Positions 40,631 through 57,142 of a stretch of DNA of 64,000 bases are shown here, one piece after another. The first letter of the stretch is position 1. Each line of letters begins with the position of its first letter. Position numbers and translations under genes: made by a program. The notes beneath the pieces were generated by a model. The model had not been told where the DNA came from. It made no database searches and worked only from the letters and a program-made list of their open reading frames with translations. This stretch comes from Embleya hyalina (GTDB lineage Bacteria > Actinomycetota > Actinomycetes > Streptomycetales > Streptomycetaceae), in assembly GCF_003967355.1 (NCBI RefSeq), contig NZ_BIFH01000051.1, positions 42,337 to 106,336 on the forward strand. Reading direction: 5' to 3'.

Positions 40631-41356
40631 ATGTCACGAGTAGACGGCCGTACCCCCGAGCAGCTCCGCCCGATCGGCTTCCAGCGCAAGTGGCTCGACC
40701 ACGCCGAGGGCTCGGTCCTCGTCGAGTTCGGTCGCACCCGCGTCCTGGTCGCCGCCAGCGTCACCGAGGGTGTGCCGCGCTGGCGCAAGGGCAGCGGCGA
40801 GGGCTGGGTGACCGCCGAATACTCGATGTTGCCGCGCGCCACCCACACCCGCGGCGACCGCGAGTCGGTCAAGGGCCGGATCGGCGGGCGTACCCACGAG
40901 ATCTCGCGGCTGATCGGCCGCTCGCTGCGTGCGGTGATCGACACCAAGGCGCTCGGCGAGACCACCATCCACCTGGACTGCGACGTGCTCCAGGCGGACG
41001 GCGGCACCCGGACGGCGGCGATCACCGGGGCCTATGTCGCGCTCGCCGACGCGGTGACCTGGGCGCGCGAGCACAAGCTCACCCGCAAGGGCGCCAATCC
41101 GCTGATCGGGTCGGTGGCGGCGGTCAGCGTCGGGATCATCGACGGCGTGCCGATGCTCGACCTCCCCTACGAGGAGGACGTGCGGGCCGAGACCGACATG
41201 AACATCGTCTGCACCGGGGACGGGCGTTTCGTCGAGGTGCAGGGCACCGCGGAGAAGGAGCCGTTCGACCGTGCGCTGCTGAACGACCTGCTGGATCTGG
41301 GCGCCCGGGGCTGCGCGGAGTTGACGACGCTTCAGCGGCGCGCCCTGGAGGGCTGA
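40631..41356 (+). CDS. rph: Ribonuclease PH
   Basis: Full-length RNase PH (…[27 protein letters not shown]…). Confidence 0.95.
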
Positions 41357-41636
41357 GCGGCCGAGTGGCGCAGCCCCGGGGACCACGAGGCGCGGGCTTC
41401 GGGTCCCGGGGCCGCGGGGAGGCAATGGCGGTACCCCGAGGGGGCGTTCCCGGCATACCGTGGCAAACGGTGGTCACGCGTCGGTTTCGAGTGTCACGTA
41501 CGCGCAACCGACACGCACCGGGTGTGCGACCGTCGGCCCGGCGCGGCCCCGGACACCAGTACGGTCATGGCACCTGGTCATCCCGATCAGCGGCAGCCAC
41601 GCCGGGCCCGACGGCCCGCCCCTGACGAGGAGCACC

Positions 41637-42035
41637 ATGTTCCGCGCCACGTACCGTCCGCGCCGGGTTCTGCGCGTCACGATCGCCGCCACCGCCATGG
41701 CGGGCGCGTTGTTCGCCACCGCCGCGTGCAGCGAGGCGCAGAAGGCGATCTCGTGCGCCGAACTGGCCACCAACCTCACCAACGACATCGCGAGCCTCGG
41801 CAACGTGCTGAACGACCCGGACGCCGCCCGCAAGGCGCTCGACAACCTCCAGAAGACCTTGAACGACAAGACCAAGGACCTGGACTCCGAGGACGCGAAG
41901 AACGCCGCGAACGGCCTGGGCGACGTGATCACCCAGCTCAGCACCAAGGCGGCCAACGGCGGCAACCTCAGCGCGAGCGACGTGCAGCCGCTGATCAACG
42001 GCGCGAAGAACCTGACCACGATCTGCGTCAAGTAG
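41637..42035 (+). CDS. Lipoprotein/secreted hypothetical protein, 132 aa
   Basis: Signal peptide with an …ATAACS lipobox-like site. RBS GAGGAG. Confidence 0.55.
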   Translation: MFRATYRPRRVLRVTIAATAMAGALFATAACSEAQKAISCAELATNLTNDIASLGNVLNDPDAARKALDNLQKTLNDKTKDLDSEDAKNAANGLGDVITQLSTKAANGGNLSASDVQPLINGAKNLTTICVK

Positions 42036-42172
42036 GTCGCGCGGTCGACCGGGCCGAGCGGATCGAGCAGGACGGGCGGGGAGCCTCGCGGAGGAGGCGC
42101 CGCGGTGCGCTCGCGATCGTCCGCGCCGAAGCGCAGGATGGAAGTGGTGACCTCCGAAGGAGATGATCCACC

Positions 42173-42523
42173 ATGCTCGCTGTGCGATCGATCAACGAAG
42201 CCGACGAGAGCCGCGACATACCGCACGGTCACCTGGACGTGGTCAGTCTGGAAGGCGTCGATTTCGGCGTCGCCCGATTCGAACCGGGCTGGCGCTGGTC
42301 GACGGACGTCGGGCCCATCGCCGGGACCGACAGTTGCCAGTTCCACCACAATGGTTACGTCGCCCAGGGACACATGCACATCCGCATGGACGACGGTGAG
42401 GAGAAGGACCTGAAGGCGGGCGACGTCTTCGTCTGCGACCCGGGCCACGACGCGTGGGTCGTCGGCGACGAGACCGCGCTGGTCTTCGACTTCGCCGGCA
42501 ACATCCACGACTACGCCAAGTAG
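42173..42523 (+). CDS. Cupin-domain protein, 116 aa
   Basis: Cupin motifs (…HHNGYVAQGHMHI… / …GDVFVCDPGHDAW…). Confidence 0.6.
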   Translation: MLAVRSINEADESRDIPHGHLDVVSLEGVDFGVARFEPGWRWSTDVGPIAGTDSCQFHHNGYVAQGHMHIRMDDGEEKDLKAGDVFVCDPGHDAWVVGDETALVFDFAGNIHDYAK

Positions 42524-42619
42524 TCGCGACCGAGCGGCGATCCGGGCACCCGCGCCCGGACGGCGGTGACCCGCACGCCGGATTCGGTCGGTGCTCGGGG
42601 CGACCCTAGGCTTTGCGCC

Positions 42620-43222
42620 ATGAGCCGTCTCGTACTCGCCACGCGCAACGCCAACAAGGTCGTCGAACTCCAGCAGATCCTCGCGGGCGTCGGACTCGAC
42701 GTCGAACTCGTGGGGATGGACGCCTATCCCGATGTGCCCGACGTGCCCGAGACGGGGCTCACCTTCGCGGCCAACGCGCTGCTGAAGGCGCACGCCATCG
42801 CGCGGGCCACCGGACTCCCGGCGATCGCCGACGACTCGGGCCTGTGCGTGGCCGCGCTCAACGGGATGCCCGGGATCTTCTCCGCCCGCTGGGCCGGCAC
42901 ACACGGCGACGACACGGCCAACCTGCGGCTGCTGCTCGCCCAACTGTCCGACATCGCCGACGAACACCGCGCGGCGTGGTTCGCGTGCGCGGCGGCGCTC
43001 GCGCTGCCCGACGGCACCGAGCGGGTGGTCGAGGGCCGGTTCGAGGGCACGCTGACCCGCGAGCCGCGCGGCACCGGCGGCTTCGGCTACGACCCGATCC
43101 TGCGAGTGGCCGGTGACACCCGCACCGCCGCCGAGTTGACCGCCGCCGAGAAGAACGCGATCAGCCACCGGGGGAAGGCGTTTCGCGCGCTGGCCCCGAT
43201 CGTGTCCGAGCTGATCGGCTGA
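42620..43222 (+). CDS. rdgB: Non-canonical purine NTP pyrophosphatase RdgB/HAM1
   Basis: …LVLATRNANKVVELQQIL… …FGYDPIL… The rph-rdgB pairing is conserved. Confidence 0.9.
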   Translation: MSRLVLATRNANKVVELQQILAGVGLDVELVGMDAYPDVPDVPETGLTFAANALLKAHAIARATGLPAIADDSGLCVAALNGMPGIFSARWAGTHGDDTANLRLLLAQLSDIADEHRAAWFACAAALALPDGTERVVEGRFEGTLTREPRGTGGFGYDPILRVAGDTRTAAELTAAEKNAISHRGKAFRALAPIVSELIG

Positions 43223-43328
43223 CCACCCCGCCCGGCCGCCCGTTCCTGCCGGGATTCGGCAGGGTTGGTAGCGTCTTCGTGCCGGGTTTCCGGCAGCGAA
43301 GCGGGGCTACGGGGTACGGGGGCAAGGC

Positions 43329-44438
43329 GTGAAGAGCCACGACGGGATACCCGCCGAGTTCCTGCGCGACTGGGCCGAACTGCTCGGCGAGATCTCGACC
43401 ACCGGGCGCCTGTTGCGGCGCGCCGAGCTGGACGTGCTGGCCGACCTCGGCGAGCGGGCCGCGGAGGCCGGACACCACTGGCGCGCGCTGGTCGACCTGT
43501 ACCTGCGCGAGACCCGCCGCGTGTGGACCACCCTGCCGGGCGTCGCCCGCGCGGGAAGCGTCGGTGAGGCGGCTCGCGCGGGCGAGGCGGTGCTGACCGC
43601 CTCCGAGGCGGCGATCACCGCGCTGGGCGCCGGCCACGAGCGGGCCCAGCGGTTGGCGGTCCGCCAGGCGGAGGCCGCCCGTCGCGAGTTCATCGACGAC
43701 CTGCTGTACGGCCGCAGCGACCCGGGCCGGCTCGCCGAGCGTGCCGAGCGGTTCGGGCTGCGGCTGGCCCGCGCGCACGTGGTCGCGGTGGCCGTGGGCG
43801 CGGTGGCGTACGACGAGGCGCACCCGCTGGCCCGCCGGGTCGAGCGCGAGCTGATCGGCCGATTCGGCGAACGCGACGTGCTGCTGACCACCAAGGGCGG
43901 CCGGCTGGTGTGCGTCGCGCCGGACGACGAGCGGCCGGTGCTCGCCGCCTTCGCCGAGTACGCGACCCGGGCGGGCGGCGGGCGGGAGAGCGCCGACCGG
44001 GTCGCCCTGGGCCGATCGCACCCGGGCGCGGGCGGCGTCGTGCTGTCCTACGAGGAGGCGCTGGGCGCGCTCGACCTGGCCGAGCGGCTGGACCTGCCGG
44101 GCTCCGTGCTCGACGCGGCCGATCTGCTGGTCTTCCCGGTACTGCTGCGCGATCGGGCGGCGATGGCCGATCTGGTCCGCACCGCGCTCGGGCCGCTGGT
44201 GCACGCGCGCGGTGGCGCGGCCCCGCTCCTGGAGACGATCGCGGCGTGCGCGGCGGCGGGCTACGTCAACGCCGAGGCCGCCCGTCGGTTGCGGATCAGC
44301 GTACGCACGCTCTCCTATCGGCTGGAGCGGATCCGGACGCTGACCGGATACGACCCGGCCGACGCGTTGCAGCGCTACACCCTGGAGACCGCAGCGCTCG
44401 GTGCCCGCGTCCTGGGCTGGCCGAGTAACCCCCTTTAG
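43329..44438 (+). CDS. PucR-family transcriptional regulator, 369 aa
   Basis: C-terminal PucR-type HTH (…AARRLRISVRTLSYRLERIRTLTGYDP…). Confidence 0.75.
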   Translation: MKSHDGIPAEFLRDWAELLGEISTTGRLLRRAELDVLADLGERAAEAGHHWRALVDLYLRETRRVWTTLPGVARAGSVGEAARAGEAVLTASEAAITALGAGHERAQRLAVRQAEAARREFIDDLLYGRSDPGRLAERAERFGLRLARAHVVAVAVGAVAYDEAHPLARRVERELIGRFGERDVLLTTKGGRLVCVAPDDERPVLAAFAEYATRAGGGRESADRVALGRSHPGAGGVVLSYEEALGALDLAERLDLPGSVLDAADLLVFPVLLRDRAAMADLVRTALGPLVHARGGAAPLLETIAACAAAGYVNAEAARRLRISVRTLSYRLERIRTLTGYDPADALQRYTLETAALGARVLGWPSNPL

Positions 44439-44565
44439 CCGGGTTGTCCCCCGGGTCGCGGATCGGACGTCAAGGAGCGGCCAACACTGCCGGCTTCCGG
44501 CAATGCGCGCGCGTCCGCGGCGATGTCACCATGACGGCGCACGACGGGCCGAGGGGGGTGGGACG

Positions 44566-45210
44566 GTGGGGGATTTCGTGCGGGCGGCACTGGCGTTTCC
44601 CGCCGTTCTGTTCAGCTTCGCGCTCGTCGTGGTGGCGGCCTATTGGTTGCTGGTGTTGATCGGCGGTGTCGCCGTGGGCCATGGGGGCCCCGGGGGCGGC
44701 CATCATGACGGGCCCTGGGCCCACGGGGGTCATGATGGTCACGGGGGCCATGGGGATCACGGCCCGGGCGACACCGCCGGTGTCCCGGTCACGGTCACGA
44801 TCTCGTTCGCGATCGCCGTGACCTGGTTCTGCTGCCTGGTCGGTACCGCGCTGACCGAGCGGTGGTGGCTGCGCGCCGCGGCGCTCCCCGCGGCGCTCGG
44901 TGCCGGATGGTTCGCCGCGCGCCTCGCGCGGGCGCTGGGCCGCCGCTTTCTGAAGGCCGAACGCCCCTCCCTGCGGGCCGACTTCGTCGGTCGTACCTGC
45001 CTGATCCGGACCGGTCGGGTGGGCCACGACTTCGGTCAGGCCGAGGTCCGGGCCGAGGACGGCTCGACCGCGCTCCTCCAGGTCCGCACCGACGAGAGCG
45101 GGCTGGTCTCCGGCAGCACCGCGTTGATCTTCGACTACGACGTCGCCGGCGAGTTCTTCCGGGTCACCCGCTTCGACAGCGCGCTGGACCCGGATCGCGT
45201 CACCGGCTGA
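44566..45210 (+). CDS. NfeD/YqiJ-like membrane protein with a His/Gly-rich segment, about 214 aa
   Basis: Two TM helices and a C-terminal NfeD-type beta-barrel (…RTGRVGHDFGQAEVRAEDGSTALLQVRT…). It lies immediately upstream of the flotillin gene. Confidence 0.65.
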   Translation: MGDFVRAALAFPAVLFSFALVVVAAYWLLVLIGGVAVGHGGPGGGHHDGPWAHGGHDGHGGHGDHGPGDTAGVPVTVTISFAIAVTWFCCLVGTALTERWWLRAAALPAALGAGWFAARLARALGRRFLKAERPSLRADFVGRTCLIRTGRVGHDFGQAEVRAEDGSTALLQVRTDESGLVSGSTALIFDYDVAGEFFRVTRFDSALDPDRVTG

Positions 45211-45357
45211 CTCTCCTTCGTGCTCCCGGCCGCCCCGAGCCGGTCCACGAGCACCCGCCCGACTTCCGTTCCGCCCGCCCTGCCTCCTGCCCGTCCGCCG
45301 CCGCGCGCCGTTGCCCGTGCGGTCACCAACGTCCCGTTCGACCAAGGGATTTCACTG

Positions 45358-47388
45358 ATGGATGCCATCACCGTGGGCATCGGCGTGCTCGTCGCCGTCG
45401 TCCTGCTCGTCGTGCTCGTCGTCTTCCTCGCCGTGACCCGGCTCTACCGCAAGGTCTCGCAGGGCCAGGCCCTGATCATCTCCAAGGCCAACACGGTCGA
45501 CGTCACCTTCACCGGCGCCGTGGTGCTGCCGGTGCTGCACCGGGCCGAGACCATGGACATCTCGGTGAAGACCATCGAGATCCGCCGGACCGGGCGCGAG
45601 GGGCTGATCTGCCGGGACAACATCCGGGCGGACATCCACATCTACTTCTTCGTCCGGGTCAACAAGACCGTCGAGGACGTGATCAAGGTGGCCCAGGCGA
45701 TCGGCGCGGACCGGGCCAGCGACCGGGCGGCGATCCAGGACTTCTTCGCGGCCAAGTTCGCCGAGGCGCTCAAGACGGTCGGCAAACAACTCGACTTCGT
45801 CGACCTGTACACCAAGCGCGAGGAGTTCCGGGACCGGATCCTCGCGGTGATCGGCACCGACCTCAACGGCTACCACCTCGACGACGCCGCGATCGACTTC
45901 CTCGAACAGACCCCGATGAGCCAGCTCGACGCCGCGAACATCCTGGACGCCCAGGGCATTCGCAAGATCACCGAGCTGACCACCATCGAGCACGTGCGCA
46001 CCAACGAGTACCAGCGCACCGAGGAAAAGGAGATGACCCGGCAAAACGTCGAGGCCCGCGAGACGGTGCTCGAACTGGAGCGCCGCCAGGCCGACGCGGA
46101 GATCAAGCAGCGCCGCGAGATCGAGATCAGCCGTGCCCGCGAGGAGGCGGAGACCTCCCGGGTGCAGGCCGAGGAGCGGCTGCGCGCGCAGTCGGCGCAC
46201 ATGAAGACCGAGGAGGCGCTCGGGATCCAGAACGAGAACCGGGAGCGCGAGGTCGCCGTCGCGCAGAAGAACCGCGAGCGGGTGATCGCGGTGGAGAACG
46301 AGCGGATCGAGAAGGACCGCCTCCTGGAGGTGATCGCCCGCGAGCGGGAGACCCAATTGCGCCGGATCGCCGGTGACAAGGAGGTCGAGGCGGAGAAGCG
46401 GGACATCGCCGAGGTGATCCGCGAGCGGATCGCGGTCGAGCGCACGGTGGCCGCGCAGGAGGAGGAGATCAAGAAGCTGCGGATGGTCGAGGAGGCCGAA
46501 CGCGAGCGGCAGGCGCAGATCATCCACGCCGAGGCCGAGGCCCAGGGACGGCTGGTCAAGGACATCAAGGCGGCCGAGGCCGCCGAGCAGTCGGCCGGCC
46601 ACCGCGCGGCCGAGCAGCTCACCATGGCCGAGGCCCGGCGCAAGTCGGCCGAACTGGACACCCAGGCCGCGATCCGCGCCGCCGAGGGCAAGCGGGCCGA
46701 GGCCGCCGCCGTGGGTCTGGCCGAGGCCGAGGTGACCGAGCGGATGGCCGACGCGGTGTCCAAGCGGGGTCTGGCCGAGGCCGCGGTGACCCGCGAGAAG
46801 GCGCTGGCGAGCGCCGACGGGCTGCGCGAGCGGCTGAAGGGCGAGGCCGAGGGCCTGACCGAGAAGGCCGCCGCGATGGCCGCGCTCGACGAGTCCAGCC
46901 GGATACACGAGGAGTACCGACTGCGCCTGGAGGCGGAGAAGGAGATCCGGCTCGCCGGCCTGGAGGTGAACCGGCAGATCGCCGAGGCACAGGCCACCGT
47001 GCTGGCCACCGGCCTGGAGAACGCCAAGATCGACATCGTCGGCGGGGACAGCGTGTTCTTCGACCGGATCATGGGCGCGATGGCCGCCGGGAAGAGTGTG
47101 GACGCCTTCGTCGACCGCTCCGACACCGTGCGCACGATGGCCGCCTCCTGGCTGGACCCGAACGGCTCGACGTTCGTCGACGACCTCGGCGCACTGGCCG
47201 CGGGCCTGGGCTCGGGCGGCGTGCGCGACCTGACCCTCGCGGGCGCGCTCGGCGCGCTGATCGCCGGCGGCGGACCGCAGTCGGCCACCCTCCAGGGCCT
47301 GCTGGACGCGGTCCGGGCCGGCGGGCTGGGCGACACCCGGCTCGCCGACCTGACCGCCCCGGCCCGGCTCAACGGCCTGGCCAAGTAG
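45358..47388 (+). CDS. Flotillin-family SPFH/band-7 protein (FloT/YqiK-like), 676 aa
   Basis: N-terminal TM segment, SPFH domain, and a long EA-rich coiled-coil flotillin repeat region. Confidence 0.9.
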   Translation: MDAITVGIGVLVAVVLLVVLVVFLAVTRLYRKVSQGQALIISKANTVDVTFTGAVVLPVLHRAETMDISVKTIEIRRTGREGLICRDNIRADIHIYFFVRVNKTVEDVIKVAQAIGADRASDRAAIQDFFAAKFAEALKTVGKQLDFVDLYTKREEFRDRILAVIGTDLNGYHLDDAAIDFLEQTPMSQLDAANILDAQGIRKITELTTIEHVRTNEYQRTEEKEMTRQNVEARETVLELERRQADAEIKQRREIEISRAREEAETSRVQAEERLRAQSAHMKTEEALGIQNENREREVAVAQKNRERVIAVENERIEKDRLLEVIARERETQLRRIAGDKEVEAEKRDIAEVIRERIAVERTVAAQEEEIKKLRMVEEAERERQAQIIHAEAEAQGRLVKDIKAAEAAEQSAGHRAAEQLTMAEARRKSAELDTQAAIRAAEGKRAEAAAVGLAEAEVTERMADAVSKRGLAEAAVTREKALASADGLRERLKGEAEGLTEKAAAMAALDESSRIHEEYRLRLEAEKEIRLAGLEVNRQIAEAQATVLATGLENAKIDIVGGDSVFFDRIMGAMAAGKSVDAFVDRSDTVRTMAASWLDPNGSTFVDDLGALAAGLGSGGVRDLTLAGALGALIAGGGPQSATLQGLLDAVRAGGLGDTRLADLTAPARLNGLAK

Positions 47389-47405
47389 CGGGCCGCGCGA
47401 TCACC

Positions 47406-50400
47406 GTGCCGTACGAGGGAGTTGACCCGAACGTGAGCGGCCAGACGGGCGGCCCGGAGGCCGAGCCCGGGACCTACGAGGTGCTGCGCGGGCGACTGCT
47501 CGTCGCGGCCCGCGAACTGGGCACGCGGGCCCGGGAGTTGAACGAGCGCCGGGTGCGCACCTACGGCGGCGGCGCGCCGGCGCTGACCGCCACCCACCGG
47601 CTGTACACCGAACGGGCCGTGGTGGCCCGGGACATCGTCCAGGTCGGCGGCCTGCTCCTGGCCGGCTGGAACACCGGCGGCGGGCCCGGCGAGGAGGTGG
47701 GGCCCGCCGACGTGTTCGCGCTGTACCGGCGCACCCCGGAGGGCTTCGTGCCGGCCCCGACCGACGCCGTCCCGGGCCTGCTCGACGACGCCCGGTTCCG
47801 GCAGGACTTCACCGCGCTGTACCGCTACTTCCGGGACACCCGACTGCTGCGGCTGCGCGACACCGGGACGCACCTGCTCGCGGTCTTCCGGGTCGGCGAA
47901 CGCCTCACCGACATCCGGGTGTTGCGCTGGCGCCTGGCCCCCGACGGCACCCCCGCCTACCTCGACGCACAGGGCGAGCGCGAGCACGTCATCCCGGACG
48001 CGTACGACTTCCCCTGGACCGAGAGCACCCGCGCCGACCACGTACCGGGCCGGCACCCGCACATCGCGATCGCCGACACGCTGTATCTGGCCACGTCGGG
48101 CGGCCGGCTCGTGGTCAAGGTCGAGAACGACACCGAGACCGCCGAGGGGGTCTACGCGGAACCCGTCGACGACCCGCTCCAGTCGCTGGCCGACGCCGAG
48201 GTCGCGCACGCCCGGGTCGGACCGCTGTTGCTGGTCCGGGTGCGCCCGTACAACGAGAGCGAGCCGCGCCACCTGGTGTACAACACGCGCACCGCCGAGG
48301 TGCGCCGCCTCGACGGCATCGCGGCGGCCTGCCGGCGCCTGCCCGACGACCAGGGCATCGTCTTCCCCGGCGGCTATCACCCGAGCACCGGCGGCGCGCG
48401 CACCTTCGACATCGACACCACCGACGCGGAGTTCGAGGCGACGGTGCGCTCGCCCAACGGCGAGGACGTGCTGTACGTGTTCCATGCCCGGGCCGAGGGC
48501 CGCATCACGCTGCTGTCCTACAACGTGATCCGGGAGGAGGCCGCCGCGCCGATCGTCGGGCACGGCCGGGCGTTCTTCGCGGACGGCACGATGGCGATCC
48601 TGCGGGTGGTCGACGCCGAACCCACCCGGACGCACACCGTCCAGGTGTGGGACACGCCGTACACCTCGGACGCGTACGCCGCGGCGCGCCCGCCCGGTAC
48701 CGGCCCCCTGGCCCGGATCGGCAACCCGGAACTGGTCCGCGGCATCGCCGACGCCCTCGCGATCACCGCGATGGCCGAGGAGACCGCGCCCACGACCGCC
48801 GTCTTCACCGCGATCACCGCCGCCGCGGCCCGGGTCGAGGACACCCACCACTGGCTCGGCGACGCCGAACTCGGGTCCCTCGCCGAACCGTTGGCCACCG
48901 TGCGCGGCGCCGCTGCGGATGTCGTCGAGGAGTTCCGCCGGGTCCTGGACCTGCGCCGGATCGCCGCCGACGCGCTCGCCGAGGCGGTCGCGAGCACCAC
49001 CGCGCTGACCCGGCGGGTACGCGGCGAGGTGCCGGACAGCGCCACCGCCTGTGTCCGGCAGCTCGGCGAACTCCGGTACGCCCAGGGCCGGTTGGCGAGC
49101 CTGCGAGACCTCCGCCACGTGGACGCGGACGCGCTCGCCGAGGCGGATGCCGTGCTGGTCGCGGCACTGGCCGAGGCGGGCCGGCGGGCGGTGGCGTTCC
49201 TCGCCGACGACGACGCCTTCGTGGCCACCCACCGGATCGTCGACGAGTTGACCGCCGAGGCCGCCGCGTCGACCACCGTGGCCGAGGCGGGCGCGCTGAC
49301 CGCCCGGATCGACGAACAGGCCGACGGGCTGCGCGTGGTCACCGAGGTGATCGGCACCCTCGACGGCACCGACGCCGGCGTGCGCACCACGATCCTGACC
49401 CGGATCGGCGAGGTCCTGGGCGGGGTCAACCGGGCTCGCGCGACCCTGGACGCGCGCCGCCGCGACCTGCTCGACGCCGAGCAGCGCGCCGAGTTCGCCG
49501 CCGAGATGGCGCTGTTGGAGCAGACCGTGGTCGGCGCGCTGGCCGCCGCCGAGACGCCCGAGGAGTGCGACGAGCACCTGGCCCGGTTGCTGGCCCGGAT
49601 CGAGGACCTGGAGGCCGGGTTCGGCGCGCTCGACGAGCACCTGGCCCGGATCGGCGCCGAACGCGAGCGTGTCCACGACGCGTTCTCGGCCCGCAAGCAG
49701 GCCCGACTCGACGAGCGGGCCCGGCACGGCCGCCGCCTCGCCGACTCCGCACAGCGCGTCCTCACCACCATCGCCCGCCGGATCACCACCCTCGCGAGCA
49801 TCGACGAGATCAACACCTGGTTCGCCTCCGACGCCCTGGTCGGCAAGGTCCGCTCGACCGCCGGGGAACTGCGCCGCCTCGGCGACCCGGTTCGCGCCGG
49901 CGAGTTGGAGGGCCGGCTCACCGCGGCCCGCCAGGAGGCCGTCCGGGCCCTGCGCGACCGGGCCGAACTGTACGACGCGGCGGGCACCGTACGGCTCGGC
50001 CGGCACCGGTTCGCGGTGCACGACCGCCCGATCGAGTTGACCCTGGTCCCACACGGGGACACCCTCGCGTTCGCGATCACCGGCACCGACTACCGCGAGG
50101 TGGTGCGCGAGCCGCTGCCCGCCGCCCATCGGGTCTTCCACGACCAGCCGCTGGGCTCCGAGTCGCCACAGGTCTACCGGGCCGAATACCTCGCGGCGGT
50201 GGTGCTCGCGGAGACCGAGGGCCGTGCGATCGACGCGCTGCCGGCCGAGGAACTGCTCGCCGAGGTACGGCGGATCGCGCTGTCCCGCCCCGGCGAGGGC
50301 TACGACCGGGGGGTGCACGACCGGGACGCGGCGGCGCTGCTCGCGGCCGTACTGCGCCTGCGGGCCGGCGCCGGGCTGCTGCGGTTCGCGCCGGAGGTAC

Positions 50401-52223
50401 GGGCGGCGGCCCAGCTGTACTGGGCGCACGGCGTCGCCGCCGACGCCCGGCAACCCTGGACGACCCGGGCCCGGTCGCTCGGCCGGGCCAGGGACGCCTT
50501 CGGCCCGATCCCCGCCGTCGCCGACCTGGCCGCCGAACTCGGCGAGCGGGCAAGCGGGTTCCTGACCGAGGCGCTGGCCCCGCCGACCGCGTCGAGCACC
50601 GCGATCGGCGCCTACCTGTTCGAGGAACTCGCCGCCGGCGGACCGCGCTTCGCCACCGGCGCGGTCGCCCGCACGCTCCTGACCGGCTTCCGCGCCTCGC
50701 TCGGCGGCGACGACGCCGCCGCGGCCAAGGACTTCGCCGAGGACCTGCGGGCCCTCGACGGCGACCTGGCCGCGCGGCATCAGCTCGTCGGCGCCTGGCT
50801 CGGCGCCTACGCCGCACGCCTCGACACCGCCCCGCCCCCGGAGTTGGCCGAGGCGATCGCCGTCGAGGTGTGCGGGGCGGCGCTGGAGCGACACCACGTC
50901 GACGCCCCGATCGGCACCACCGTCACCGGCCTGCTCGGCGCCCACCCGCGGGTGGCGAACGGCGGCACGCTTGACCTGCGCCTGGACGAATTCCTGGTGC
51001 GCACCGACGAGTTCCGCCGCACCCGGGTGCCCGCGTACCGGGCGTACCAGCGCCGGCGCGCGGAACTGCTCGCCGCCGCCCGCGAGCGGCTGCGGCTCGA
51101 CGCGCACACCCCCCGGGTGATGTCGGCGTTCGTCCGCAACCGGCTGATCGACGAGGTCTACCTGCCGCTGATCGGCGACAACCTGGCCAAACAGCTGGGC
51201 GCCGCGGGGCCGGAGCGGCGCACCGACAGCCAGGGGCTGCTGCTCCTGCTGTCCCCGCCCGGCTACGGCAAGACCACGCTGATGGAATACGTCGCCGCCC
51301 GACTGGGCCTGCTGTTCGTCCGGATCGACGGCCCCGCGCTCGGCGCGCGCACCACGTCCCTGGACCCGGCCGCCGCGCCGGACGCCGCCGCGCGGCGCGA
51401 GGTGGAGAAGATCGGGTTCGCCCTGGAACTGGGCGCCAACGTGCTGCTGCACGTGGACGACATCCAGCACGTCTCGCCCGAACTGCTGCAGAAATTCGTC
51501 TCGTTGTGCGACGCGCAGCGGCGGATCGAGGGTGTGCGCGACGGCGAGTCGCGCAGCTACGACCTGCGCGGGAAACGTTTCGCGGTGTGCATGGCCGGCA
51601 ACCCGTACACCGAGTCCGGTGCGCGTTTTCGGATCCCGGACATGCTCGCCAACCGGGCCGACGTGTGGAACCTGGGCGATGTGCTCGGCGGGCGCGAGGA
51701 GTTGTTCGCGCTCAGCCACATCGAGAACGCGCTGACCGCCAACCCGGTCCTGGCCCCGCTCGCCGGGCGCGACCGGGCCGATCTGGACCTGCTGATCCGG
51801 CTGGCCCGCGGCGACGGCACCGCGCGCCCGGATCGGCTCGCGCACCCGTACGACGCGACCGAACTGGAGCGCGTCCTGGCCGTGTTGCGCCGACTGCTGC
51901 ACGTGGTGGAGACGGTGCTCGCGGCGAACCGGGCCTACATCGCCTCGGCCGCGCAATCCGAGGCCGCGCGCACCGAACCGCCGTTCCGGCTGCAGGGCTC
52001 GTATCGGGACACCAACAAGCTGGCCGAGCGCATCCTGCCGGTGCTGGACGAGGTCGAGGTGGAGCGGCTGTTGGACGACCACTACGCGGCGGAGGCCCAG
52101 ACGCTGACCACCGACGCGGAGGCGAACCTGCTCAAGCTCGCCGAACTGCGCGGCCGGTCGACCCCCGAGCAGCGGGCGCGGTGGGCGGAGGTGAAGCGGG
52201 CCTACCCGGCGGCGCGCGGCTGA
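47406..52223 (+). CDS. Giant (1605 aa) protein with C-terminal MoxR/AAA_5-like ATPase module; N-terminal approx. 1200 aa of unknown function
   Basis: Walker A LLLLSPPGYGKTTLMEYVAARLGL, Walker B VLLHVDDIQHVSPE, sensor region GNPYTESGARFRIPDMLANR. GC3-biased over its full length. The gene begins 18 nt after the flotillin stop. Confidence 0.8.
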   Translation: MPYEGVDPNVSGQTGGPEAEPGTYEVLRGRLLVAARELGTRARELNERRVRTYGGGAPALTATHRLYTERAVVARDIVQVGGLLLAGWNTGGGPGEEVGPADVFALYRRTPEGFVPAPTDAVPGLLDDARFRQDFTALYRYFRDTRLLRLRDTGTHLLAVFRVGERLTDIRVLRWRLAPDGTPAYLDAQGEREHVIPDAYDFPWTESTRADHVPGRHPHIAIADTLYLATSGGRLVVKVENDTETAEGVYAEPVDDPLQSLADAEVAHARVGPLLLVRVRPYNESEPRHLVYNTRTAEVRRLDGIAAACRRLPDDQGIVFPGGYHPSTGGARTFDIDTTDAEFEATVRSPNGEDVLYVFHARAEGRITLLSYNVIREEAAAPIVGHGRAFFADGTMAILRVVDAEPTRTHTVQVWDTPYTSDAYAAARPPGTGPLARIGNPELVRGIADALAITAMAEETAPTTAVFTAITAAAARVEDTHHWLGDAELGSLAEPLATVRGAAADVVEEFRRVLDLRRIAADALAEAVASTTALTRRVRGEVPDSATACVRQLGELRYAQGRLASLRDLRHVDADALAEADAVLVAALAEAGRRAVAFLADDDAFVATHRIVDELTAEAAASTTVAEAGALTARIDEQADGLRVVTEVIGTLDGTDAGVRTTILTRIGEVLGGVNRARATLDARRRDLLDAEQRAEFAAEMALLEQTVVGALAAAETPEECDEHLARLLARIEDLEAGFGALDEHLARIGAERERVHDAFSARKQARLDERARHGRRLADSAQRVLTTIARRITTLASIDEINTWFASDALVGKVRSTAGELRRLGDPVRAGELEGRLTAARQEAVRALRDRAELYDAAGTVRLGRHRFAVHDRPIELTLVPHGDTLAFAITGTDYREVVREPLPAAHRVFHDQPLGSESPQVYRAEYLAAVVLAETEGRAIDALPAEELLAEVRRIALSRPGEGYDRGVHDRDAAALLAAVLRLRAGAGLLRFAPEVRAAAQLYWAHGVAADARQPWTTRARSLGRARDAFGPIPAVADLAAELGERASGFLTEALAPPTASSTAIGAYLFEELAAGGPRFATGAVARTLLTGFRASLGGDDAAAAKDFAEDLRALDGDLAARHQLVGAWLGAYAARLDTAPPPELAEAIAVEVCGAALERHHVDAPIGTTVTGLLGAHPRVANGGTLDLRLDEFLVRTDEFRRTRVPAYRAYQRRRAELLAAARERLRLDAHTPRVMSAFVRNRLIDEVYLPLIGDNLAKQLGAAGPERRTDSQGLLLLLSPPGYGKTTLMEYVAARLGLLFVRIDGPALGARTTSLDPAAAPDAAARREVEKIGFALELGANVLLHVDDIQHVSPELLQKFVSLCDAQRRIEGVRDGESRSYDLRGKRFAVCMAGNPYTESGARFRIPDMLANRADVWNLGDVLGGREELFALSHIENALTANPVLAPLAGRDRADLDLLIRLARGDGTARPDRLAHPYDATELERVLAVLRRLLHVVETVLAANRAYIASAAQSEAARTEPPFRLQGSYRDTNKLAERILPVLDEVEVERLLDDHYAAEAQTLTTDAEANLLKLAELRGRSTPEQRARWAEVKRAYPAARG

Positions 52224-52912
52224 GCGGAGGCGGGCTCCGGCGCGGCCTCGGCGGCCTGCGCCGGCTCCGGGATCCACGCGGCGGTGAGCACGCCGTGCCG
52301 GGTCCACCCCAGCGTGCGGTACAACTCCCGCCCGGCGGCGGTGGCGACCAGGACCCCGGTCCGGGCGCCGCGCGCGGCGGCGGCGTCGGCGAGCACGGTC
52401 ATCACCACGCTGCCCAGGCCGCGCCGACGGTGCGCGGGGTCGGTATGGATCTGGTCGGCCACCGCGGTGTCCCCGGTGACCCCGATCCGCCCGCGGGCGG
52501 CGACCGCGCCGTCGGCGGCGAGCAGCCGGCCGAAGATCGTCTCGTCCCGGCTCTCGACCTCGACCGTGTAGCCGGCCGGCGCCGCCACCGACTGTCGGCG
52601 CAGCGGCCCGGTCATCGGATACTCCGGCTCGCCCACGGTCCACGCGGAGGTGAGCGCGGGCCGCACCCGCTCGACGGGCGCGAGGGTCTTGATCCAGGTG
52701 CCGGGCTCGGTCCGGGTCCGAACCACCTCGGCCGGCCGGTCCGGGTCGAAGAACACGTAGCGCACCCGATGGCCGGGCAACCCGACGTCGAGCCGATACC
52801 CGCCGTCCACCGCGACCGGTGCCGTCACCGACCGAGCCACCGCCCACCCGCCGACCCAGGCCCGGATCAGCTCTGCGTCGGACATGACCCGTTCCCGATC
52901 GGCGGTGCTCAC
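52202..52912 (-). CDS. GNAT-family N-acetyltransferase, about 227-236 aa
   Basis: Acetyl-CoA-binding motif …HRRRGLGSVVMTVL… The 3' end overlaps the convergent giant gene by 22 nt. Confidence 0.7.
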   Translation of the reverse strand: MSTADRERVMSDAELIRAWVGGWAVARSVTAPVAVDGGYRLDVGLPGHRVRYVFFDPDRPAEVVRTRTEPGTWIKTLAPVERVRPALTSAWTVGEPEYPMTGPLRRQSVAAPAGYTVEVESRDETIFGRLLAADGAVAARGRIGVTGDTAVADQIHTDPAHRRRGLGSVVMTVLADAAAARGARTGVLVATAAGRELYRTLGWTRHGVLTAAWIPEPAQAAEAAPEPASAQPRAAG

Positions 52913-55065: not shown

Positions 55066-56577
<1,512 letters not shown>

Positions 56578-56728: not shown

Positions 56729-57142
56729 TCAGTAGGCGTCCACCACCTCGACCTCCTCCTCGGTGATCACGCCGTCGACGATCCGGTACGACCGGAACTC
56801 GTAGGTGTCCTCCTCGCGCGTGGACACCAGCACGTAGTGCGCGTTCGGCTCGGACGCGTAGGACACGTCCGTGCGCGACGGATACGCCTCGGTCGCGGTG
56901 TGCGAGTGGTAGACGATCACCGGCTCCTCGTCCCGGTCGTCCATCTCCCGGTAGAGCTTGAACAGGTCGGCCGAGTCGAACTCGTAGAACGTGGGCGAGC
57001 GCGCGGCGTTGAGCATCGGGATGAACCGCTCGGGCCGGTCGCTGCCCTCGGGCCCGGCGACGACGCCACACGCCTCGTCGGGGTGGTCGGCACGGGCGTG
57101 GGCGACGATGCGATCGCGCAGGGCTGCGGTGATGGTGAGCAT
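56729..57142 (-). CDS. mec: Mec+ JAMM/MPN+ zinc metalloprotease (CysO C-terminal processing/desulfhydrase)
   Basis: …DHPDEACGVVAG… …VIVYHSHTATEAYPSRTDV… is the JAMM motif. Confidence 0.9.
   Translation of the reverse strand: MLTITAALRDRIVAHARADHPDEACGVVAGPEGSDRPERFIPMLNAARSPTFYEFDSADLFKLYREMDDRDEEPVIVYHSHTATEAYPSRTDVSYASEPNAHYVLVSTREEDTYEFRSYRIVDGVITEEEVEVVDAY

Follow-up and report, generated by a model that had tools for sequence, protein, structure and literature searches.

We analyzed a 64,000-nt stretch of the Embleya hyalina genome (NCBI RefSeq assembly GCF_003967355.1, contig NZ_BIFH01000051.1, positions 42,337 to 106,336 of the forward strand), hereafter the window, whose own coordinates are used throughout. 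At 43329-52223, it carries four co-directional plus-strand genes that encode a PucR regulator, a small YqiJ-like membrane protein, a flotillin-like protein, and a giant AAA+ ATPase. On balance, we favor the reading that the locus is an abbreviated form of the flotillin/YqiJ/giant-AAA+ cassette linked to the phage shock protein (PSP) system, equivalent to bacCDE of Pseudomonas aeruginosa, and that it acts as a membrane-stress remodeling machine. We read it as a membrane-stress machine because two membrane proteins are consistently encoded with a motif-conserved AAA+ ATPase and PspA/IM30 joins them in several phyla. A preliminary description of the same DNA had recognized an NfeD-like, flotillin, and giant AAA+ module and had suggested a membrane-associated remodeling machine. 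The module is real, with its coordinates and gene order right, and the suggestion is supported; it equals the inference that Ravi et al. (mSystems, 2024; PMC11237479) have already published together with the module and its architecture.

Gene organization of the locus

The four genes are as follows:

43329..44438, plus strand: PucR-family transcriptional regulator, 369 aa (Pfam GGDEF_2 and HTH_30)
44566..45210, plus strand: YqiJ / short-NfeD-type membrane protein, BacC-like, 214 aa (orthologue alignment and hydrophobic segments)
45358..47388, plus strand: flotillin-like SPFH protein, BacD/PaFlo3-like, 676 aa (homologues with Band_7)
47406..52223, plus strand: giant cytosolic AAA+ ATPase, BacE-like, 1605 aa (Pfam DUF3686, DUF7902, and AAA)

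The window is ~72% G+C, and the genes were called with the help of codon-position GC content. Third-codon-position GC of 0.93-0.96 backs the plus-strand genes at 43329-44438, 45220/45358-47388, and 47406-52223, and the YqiJ-like gene shows a lower value (0.84, over the extended open reading frame [ORF] 44401-45210). The start of the small protein is the GTG at 44566 rather than the ORF start at 44401, as indicated by the upstream GAGGGGGG box and the orthologue alignment. The flotillin-like protein starts at the ATG at 45358, with AGGGA 8 nt upstream, and its 676 aa equal the length of the Embleya orthologues. The giant gene follows the flotillin stop codon after 17 nt. This gap is compatible with co-transcription. 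No promoter-like site emerged when 43100-52500 was scanned for promoters and terminators, and the terminator-like sites were weak and all lie within coding sequence. The YqiJ-like and flotillin genes are separated by 147 nt (45211-45357) of strongly C-rich sequence, with runs of CCGCCC and CCTGCC; a simple scan finds neither a promoter nor a terminator in it, and an internal promoter or an RNA element could lie there.

Conservation and spread of the cassette

Synteny was examined in 80 actinobacterial loci from one-genome-per-species data, 77 of which have enough upstream DNA; the genera include Embleya, Streptomyces, Nocardiopsis, Micromonospora, Nonomuraea, Actinomadura, Amycolatopsis, Actinoplanes, Herbidospora, and others. 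All 77 of these loci have the flotillin gene immediately before the giant gene and in the same orientation. The same adjacency is found in all seven loci examined from other phyla (Planctomycetota, Bacteroidota, Acidobacteriota, and Gammaproteobacteria), in ~18 Pseudomonas-type metagenome contigs, and in three plasmid/chromid records, among them those of Deinococcus and pQBR103. This strict synteny supports the coupling of the giant gene to flotillin proposed in the preliminary description. The YqiJ-like gene precedes the flotillin gene in ~55 of the 77 actinobacterial loci (tblastn); a subgroup of Streptomyces lacks it and has the PucR gene immediately next to the flotillin gene. Beyond the YqiJ-like, flotillin, and PucR genes, no neighbor is conserved in the actinobacterial loci.

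The giant gene is genuine and not a fusion or an assembly error, since nearly all of its listed relatives are full length. More than 2,600 homologues were found; among the matches listed, nearly all of those in Actinomycetota are 1,570-1,730 aa long, and nearly all relatives are full length at 1,570-2,036 aa. An exhaustive search with residues 1-720 gave 741 cluster representatives (50% identity), and the full-length relatives extend to identities as low as 23%. The giant protein is ~42-44% identical across phyla, and the distant-representative profile retrieved full-length homologues in Planctomycetota, Bacteroidota, Acidobacteriota, and Gammaproteobacteria. In all seven contexts from other phyla, genes for a 646-781-aa and a 206-262-aa protein precede the giant gene on the same strand, with homology of both partners to the window proteins shown for four of the seven. 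With Deinococcota included, the cassette spans at least six bacterial phyla.

A PspA_IM30 gene is adjacent to the cassette in three of these seven contexts (L082, L083, and L085) and in the Pseudomonas-type contigs, and a DUF2170 (CesT/Tir-like) gene is adjacent in two (L082 and L086). The PspA/IM30 gene link points to envelope stress or membrane remodeling, not to DNA repair. We call the window copy abbreviated because its 64 kb contain no PspA or DUF2170 gene.

The cassette occurs on 13 large plasmid/chromid records, including those of Deinococcus and pQBR103, and it is a compact, self-contained unit whose flanks vary by genus. Taken with the 'phage shock' name of PspA and the large ATPases that defense systems often have, this could suggest anti-phage defense or abortive infection, in which the cassette would sense or cause membrane perturbation. 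However, no phage-borne copy was found (no tblastn match in 50,697 phage records), the sole PADLOC match is to IetA, in the P-loop only (E=0.0055), and the cassette encodes no effector-like domain (nuclease, protease, TIR, or pore-former). Identities of 54-68% across Actinomycetota and the housekeeping flanks (rph and rdgB) would also be compatible with vertical inheritance. We consider a defense role unlikely and give it little weight.

The gene that follows the giant gene differs between relatives. It encodes a PLD-like protein (PLDc_2) at the BacF position of contig L092 (3271-3963, minus strand) and a rhomboid protease in Bacterioplanes (L082:13361-13933) and in the Pseudomonas-type contigs L088 and L102; enzymes of both kinds act on membranes or lipids. 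In the P. fluorescens megaplasmid pQBR103 (L115, NC_009444.1 86449-103248), the cassette stands directly after genes annotated as DUF2491, DUF350, DUF1190, and glutathionylspermidine synthase family, which we take to be the yjfK-yjfL-yjfM-yjfC gene set of Escherichia coli. This megaplasmid unites two PspA-linked operon classes that are kept apart in the passages of Ravi et al. on these operons (PMC11237479). In addition, a eukaryotic protein set (eukprot g33011.t1) contains one full-length homologue (P0511, 1711 aa), and Pfam also records DUF3686 in eukaryotes.

Domains and predicted structure of the giant ATPase

The giant protein has no predicted transmembrane segment, and both of its partners are membrane proteins. 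Its N-terminal ~1200 aa had been described as free of recognizable motifs; this does not hold, as Pfam finds DUF3686 at residues 37-482 (E=2e-170) and DUF7902 at residues 603-686 (E=1.6e-26). AAA, AAA_22, and AAA_5 match residues 1274-1402, within the C-terminal AAA+ module at ~1240-1605. The C-terminal ATPase of the preliminary description is thus retained, whereas its assignment to the MoxR/AAA_5 type is loosely backed, the AAA_5 score (17.6 bits) being below the Pfam cut-off of 22. The pattern that follows the Walker B motif, DDIQH...LQKF...GNPYTE...PDMLANRAD, is similar to that of MoxR proteins (AAA_5/AAA_3), many orthologues have Pfam AAA_5, and JGI calls some of them 'MoxR-like ATPase'. 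However, the giant protein is fivefold larger than MoxR, and no MoxR-style VWA-domain partner is a conserved neighbor in the 80 actinobacterial loci or in the gene tables from other phyla.

The conservation of sequence motifs was assessed in two alignments, one of 12 actinobacterial and one of 20 distant sequences. SPPGYGKTT, DDIQH, MAGNP, and PDMLANRAD do not vary between Actinomycetota and relatives of 23-30% identity, and the elements invariant across phyla comprise Walker A, Walker B, the putative sensor-1 Asn, and the Arg of NRAD. The Walker B motif of AAA+ proteins usually ends with a catalytic Glu. In the giant protein it reads DDIQH (51456-51470, residues 1351-1355), with an Asp at the usual Glu place that is invariant in both alignments, and this Asp-Asp pair may mean slow or regulated ATP hydrolysis. 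A second motif, EGYxRGVHDxDA, lies in the middle domain (50295-50330, residues 964-975) and is invariant in Actinomycetota. Its G-V-H-D-x-D core is retained in the relatives that are 23-30% identical and could be a catalytic or metal-binding site.

The protein was modeled with AlphaFold2 in two pieces, residues 1-720 (predicted local distance difference test [pLDDT] of 78) and residues 691-1605 (pLDDT of 81). In the two models together, a helix at 24-53 is followed by ~23 β-strands at 59-416; the chain is then all-helical from 422 to ~855, ends this part with a small β element, and continues with a confidently modeled middle domain at ~905-1230. Foldseek matches DUF3686 to six- and seven-bladed propellers (E=1e-5 to 1e-3, with low TM-scores), and DUF3686 is probably a β-propeller by its predicted fold. 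Foldseek also matched clathrin heavy chain, IFT-A, and COPI, but weakly (TM 0.08-0.17), and these matches were not taken as evidence of homology.

NCBI's annotation pipeline (PGAP) labels the giant protein 'DNA repair ATPase', and Pfam likewise speaks of an 'ATPase involved in DNA repair'. If these names were right, the protein would be a DNA-repair ATPase to which flotillin is unrelated or a mere tether, and its weak, P-loop-level matches to RuvB would agree. These matches, however, cover ~40 residues around the P-loop and score 17 bits against family cut-offs of 282-299, and the closest PDB sequence matches are to the P-loops of p97/NVL/Rix7 only. Domain searches of the protein revealed no nuclease, helicase, or DNA-binding domain, and no conserved DNA-repair gene lies nearby in more than 100 loci, where the conserved neighbors are the two membrane proteins and, in some phyla, PspA. 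DUF3686 and PF12458 are unmentioned in the literature searched, which leaves the DNA-repair name without a traceable experimental basis; combining 'DNA repair ATPase' with flotillin also returned nothing there, and the link to published work came via PspA and DUF2170. We give the DNA-repair explanation next to no credence.

The two membrane proteins

The flotillin-like protein of the window has no Pfam or NCBIfam match, Band_7 (PF01145) being absent even at E≤10, and PDB sequence searches with the single sequence and with a profile found nothing. Band_7 is matched by six of 17 close homologues (70-89% identical), with a best E of 3.9e-9, and the homologue P0126 (81% identical) reaches 29.8 bits. 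Membership of the window protein in the SPFH family can thus be proposed by transitive homology, and database sources label the family flotillin/SPFH/YqiK. The protein has an N-terminal hydrophobic anchor (residues 1-30, hydropathy 3.5), and a long coiled coil over a 360-residue stretch (201-560) whose composition is 19% Glu, 18% Ala, and 13% Arg; its C-terminal region is conserved and contains the motif IDIVGGxxxFFD. It is 44-50% identical to its orthologues from four other phyla.

The small protein has at least two clear hydrophobic segments (residues 4-42 and 72-98), and the conserved sequence pattern of its C-terminal segment suggests a β-rich, OB-like domain. The window protein itself has zero Pfam matches, and a profile search of PDB sequences gave nothing useful. 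Its orthologues are labeled 'DUF1449 family' in UniRef, which we take to be the former name of the YqiJ Pfam family PF07290. The Bacterioplanes orthologue (L082) passes the Pfam YqiJ_N cut-off (23.6 vs 23 bits), and the window protein matches its counterparts in L081-L084 with BLASTP E values of 2e-7 to 5e-14. Between its transmembrane helices, the small protein carries a His/Gly-rich loop, GHGGPGGGHHDGPWAHGGHDGHGGHGDHGPGD, at ~44677-44772 (residues ~38-69). This loop is missing from eight aligned non-Embleya actinobacterial orthologues, and a distant orthologue from Sulfidibacter has an Asp/Ala-rich repeat at about the same place. The loop may bind metal.

The PucR regulator

The PucR protein is supported by Pfam matches to GGDEF_2 (E=7e-18) and HTH_30 (E=1.5e-11). 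A homologue adjoins the cassette in 30 actinobacterial loci, every one from Streptomycetaceae, with a divergent orientation in 25 and a co-directional one in five, Embleya among them. The gene is absent from the cassette neighborhood in all non-Streptomycetaceae genera examined. A PucR gene does precede the module in the window, as previously described, but it is not a general part of the cassette and is confined to Streptomycetaceae. Because its position is conserved and mostly divergent, the PucR protein is probably a local regulator of the cassette in this family.

Comparison with known systems

In a paragraph based on gene neighborhoods, without experiments, Ravi et al. (PMC11237479) describe a PSP-associated operon of a band-7/flotillin protein, a YqiJ/YuaF protein, and a novel AAA+ protein, to which a PLD-superfamily hydrolase is occasionally added, and propose a role in sub-membrane assembly or remodeling. 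They also describe an 'abbreviated' form without CesT/Tir and PspA, and the paragraph does not mention a PucR regulator. All three protein architectures equal those encoded in the window, including the three-transmembrane YqiJ/YuaF-type protein, and the copies in Embleya and other Streptomycetaceae differ from the published operon by the extra PucR gene.

An orthologous operon, the bac cluster of P. aeruginosa, is under experimental study. The cluster, bacABCDEF (PA3732-PA3727), is associated with biofilms (Wallart et al., 2024, PMC10948618; Mace et al., 2008). BacA is a DUF2170 protein, BacB a PspA homologue, BacC a short NfeD, and BacD the SPFH protein PaFlo3 (PMC10948618 and PMC13086221). 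Reverse transcription PCR showed bacA-F to be a single transcript, and in a bacA mutant the levels of the BacB-F proteins increase in concert, by 6- to 13-fold (PMC10948618). The operon is also reported to be transcribed from a sigma-54 promoter and to be controlled negatively by BacA, and the reported phenotypes (biofilm, rhamnolipid, and virulence) concern bacA and bacB, not bacE.

The passages on the operon in PMC10948618 and PMC13086221 leave the identity of BacE unstated, and we located it through an exact match of the published bacD 3'-end primer on metagenome contigs. Contig L092 contains this primer and both bacE/bacF junction primers, and the primers flank a 1746-aa ORF (L092:3982-9222) with DUF3686, DUF7902, and AAA_5 that is 44% identical to the giant protein of the window over 1,600 aa, that is, over its full length. 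The amplicon sizes in the supplement of PMC10948618 disagree with the primer spacing on the contigs, and exact primer matches were used instead; primer 18090R has no exact match in the contigs. The ~18 Pseudomonas-type contigs carry the order DUF2170-PspA-short NfeD-flotillin-giant. By these sequence matches, BacE is identified as a DUF3686 protein. The bacC-bacD-bacE genes are the same three genes in the same order as in the window, which lacks bacA (DUF2170), bacB (PspA), and bacF (PLD-like) and has the PucR gene adjacent instead.

The YqiJ-YqiK pair of E. coli and the YuaF-FloT pair of Bacillus subtilis likewise have a small OB-type membrane protein encoded just upstream of a coiled-coil flotillin, although the SPFH domain of the window protein is divergent enough that Pfam Band_7 misses it. 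To our knowledge, these two-gene operons include no giant AAA+ gene. The FtsH-HflK/C and m-AAA protease-prohibitin systems may offer a further parallel, as both place an SPFH cage and an AAA+ machine at the membrane, as we propose for the cassette. FtsH, however, belongs to the classic clade of AAA proteases, is anchored in the membrane, and has ~650 aa, whereas the giant protein has no transmembrane segment or protease domain; its N-terminal 1,200 aa are unrelated to FtsH, and homology does not extend beyond the P-loop fold.

Proposed mechanism and alternatives

In the mechanism that we propose, the flotillin-like protein would form an oligomeric cage or dome at the cytoplasmic side of the membrane, with its N-terminal helix as the anchor, and would have the YqiJ-like protein as its partner, in the manner of other SPFH-NfeD pairs. 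The N-terminal part of the soluble giant protein, with its propeller and helices, would bring the protein to this flotillin platform. There the C-terminal AAA+ module, probably in the form of a ring oligomer, would build up, reshape, or take apart the flotillin assembly or the client complexes within it, and the whole cassette would form part of an envelope or membrane-stress response. We infer the physical interaction, the substrate, and the direction of remodeling. The closest analogies may be FtsH inside the HflK/C cage and Vps4 on ESCRT-III/PspA-type polymers, and the predicted layout, in which a long helical region comes after a propeller, bears a distant resemblance to eukaryotic membrane-coat proteins.

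Several results weigh against this role. The AAA+ core is modeled badly, with pLDDT below 50 around the P-loop, and the Asp-Asp pair of Walker B suggests that fast ATP hydrolysis is not assured. The propeller matches for DUF3686 are weak, fold searches with the middle domain gave no informative match, and the literature searched holds no experimental evidence for an activity of the giant protein. In P. aeruginosa, the paFlo3 (bacD) mutant forms ~20% less biofilm, with no further reported phenotype (PMC13086221). The YqiJ-like gene is dispensable in some Streptomyces. The link to stress rests on other phyla: PspA and DUF2170, queried with the Bacterioplanes proteins, gave no tblastn match in the 64-kb window at E≤0.01, and a rhomboid query gave no match either. 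As for the fourth associated family, the ORFs scanned downstream of the giant gene contain no PLD-like domain, and no PLD-like query was run.

One variant of the proposed mechanism is that the flotillin cage is a passive scaffold and that the giant protein acts on other membrane-proximal clients, for example by extracting or unfolding damaged membrane proteins or by acting on lipids. This would follow the FtsH-HflKC precedent, in which an AAA+ machine works on clients within an SPFH cage; the flotillin of Staphylococcus aureus is also said to stabilize unfolded proteins in microdomains. The large propeller and helical N-terminal part resembles a client- or adaptor-binding module, and some operons contain a PLD-like or rhomboid gene, but the giant protein itself has no protease or lipid-enzyme domain. 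The passive scaffold is a variant of the membrane-stress machine rather than its opposite, and we hold it to be possible, if doubtful. A more specific proposal, in which the giant protein is a dedicated ATP-driven assembly/disassembly machine for flotillin cages and the SPFH counterpart of Vps4 for ESCRT-III, seems to us rather unlikely. The membrane-stress remodeling machine in its broader form remains the reading that we favor.

Neighboring genes

The genes upstream of the cassette are as follows:

40631-41356, upstream flank: RNase PH (rph)
41460-42035, plus strand: 191-aa protein without a Pfam match
42173-42523, plus strand: cupin
42566-43222, plus strand: Ham1/RdgB-type NTP pyrophosphatase (rdgB)

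The genes rph and rdgB are a frequent pair. A 564-aa minus-strand ORF at 41474-43168, considered as the upstream neighbor, was rejected as a spurious shadow ORF because its codon-position GC (0.77/0.54/0.79 at positions 1/2/3) is non-coding and three plus-strand genes lie there; these genes occupy 41460-43222 and have a third-position GC of 0.87-0.92. Downstream, a convergent GNAT acetyltransferase gene (52202-52912, minus strand) shares 22 nt with the 3' end of the giant gene (52202-52223), and its place beside the cassette is conserved in Embleya only. Farther away, a PLP-dependent enzyme (PALP, 55066-56544, minus strand) lies near a prokaryotic JAB-domain protein (56729-57142, minus strand). 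Similar pairs occur in sulfur-carrier-protein-dependent cysteine synthesis, and this pair is unrelated to the cassette.

Implications

Several features described here are absent from the published passages on these operons: the link to PucR in Streptomycetaceae, the fact that some Streptomyces have lost the YqiJ-like gene, the nature of BacE as a DUF3686 protein, and the Walker B Asp-Asp and GVHDxD motifs. The value of these findings lies in annotation and in the choice of a tractable model, rather than in discovery. Thousands of genomes carry the partner ATPase under the mistaken label 'DNA repair ATPase', and the evidence presented here favors membrane biology. The adjacent PucR gene suggests a testable regulatory input in Streptomycetaceae. 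The mechanism of bacterial flotillins is debated, and the obligate ATPase partner of this subfamily in at least six phyla provides an experimental handle on it. If the giant protein were a dedicated machine for flotillin cages, bacterial flotillin microdomains would undergo an energy-dependent dynamic cycle that has so far not been described.

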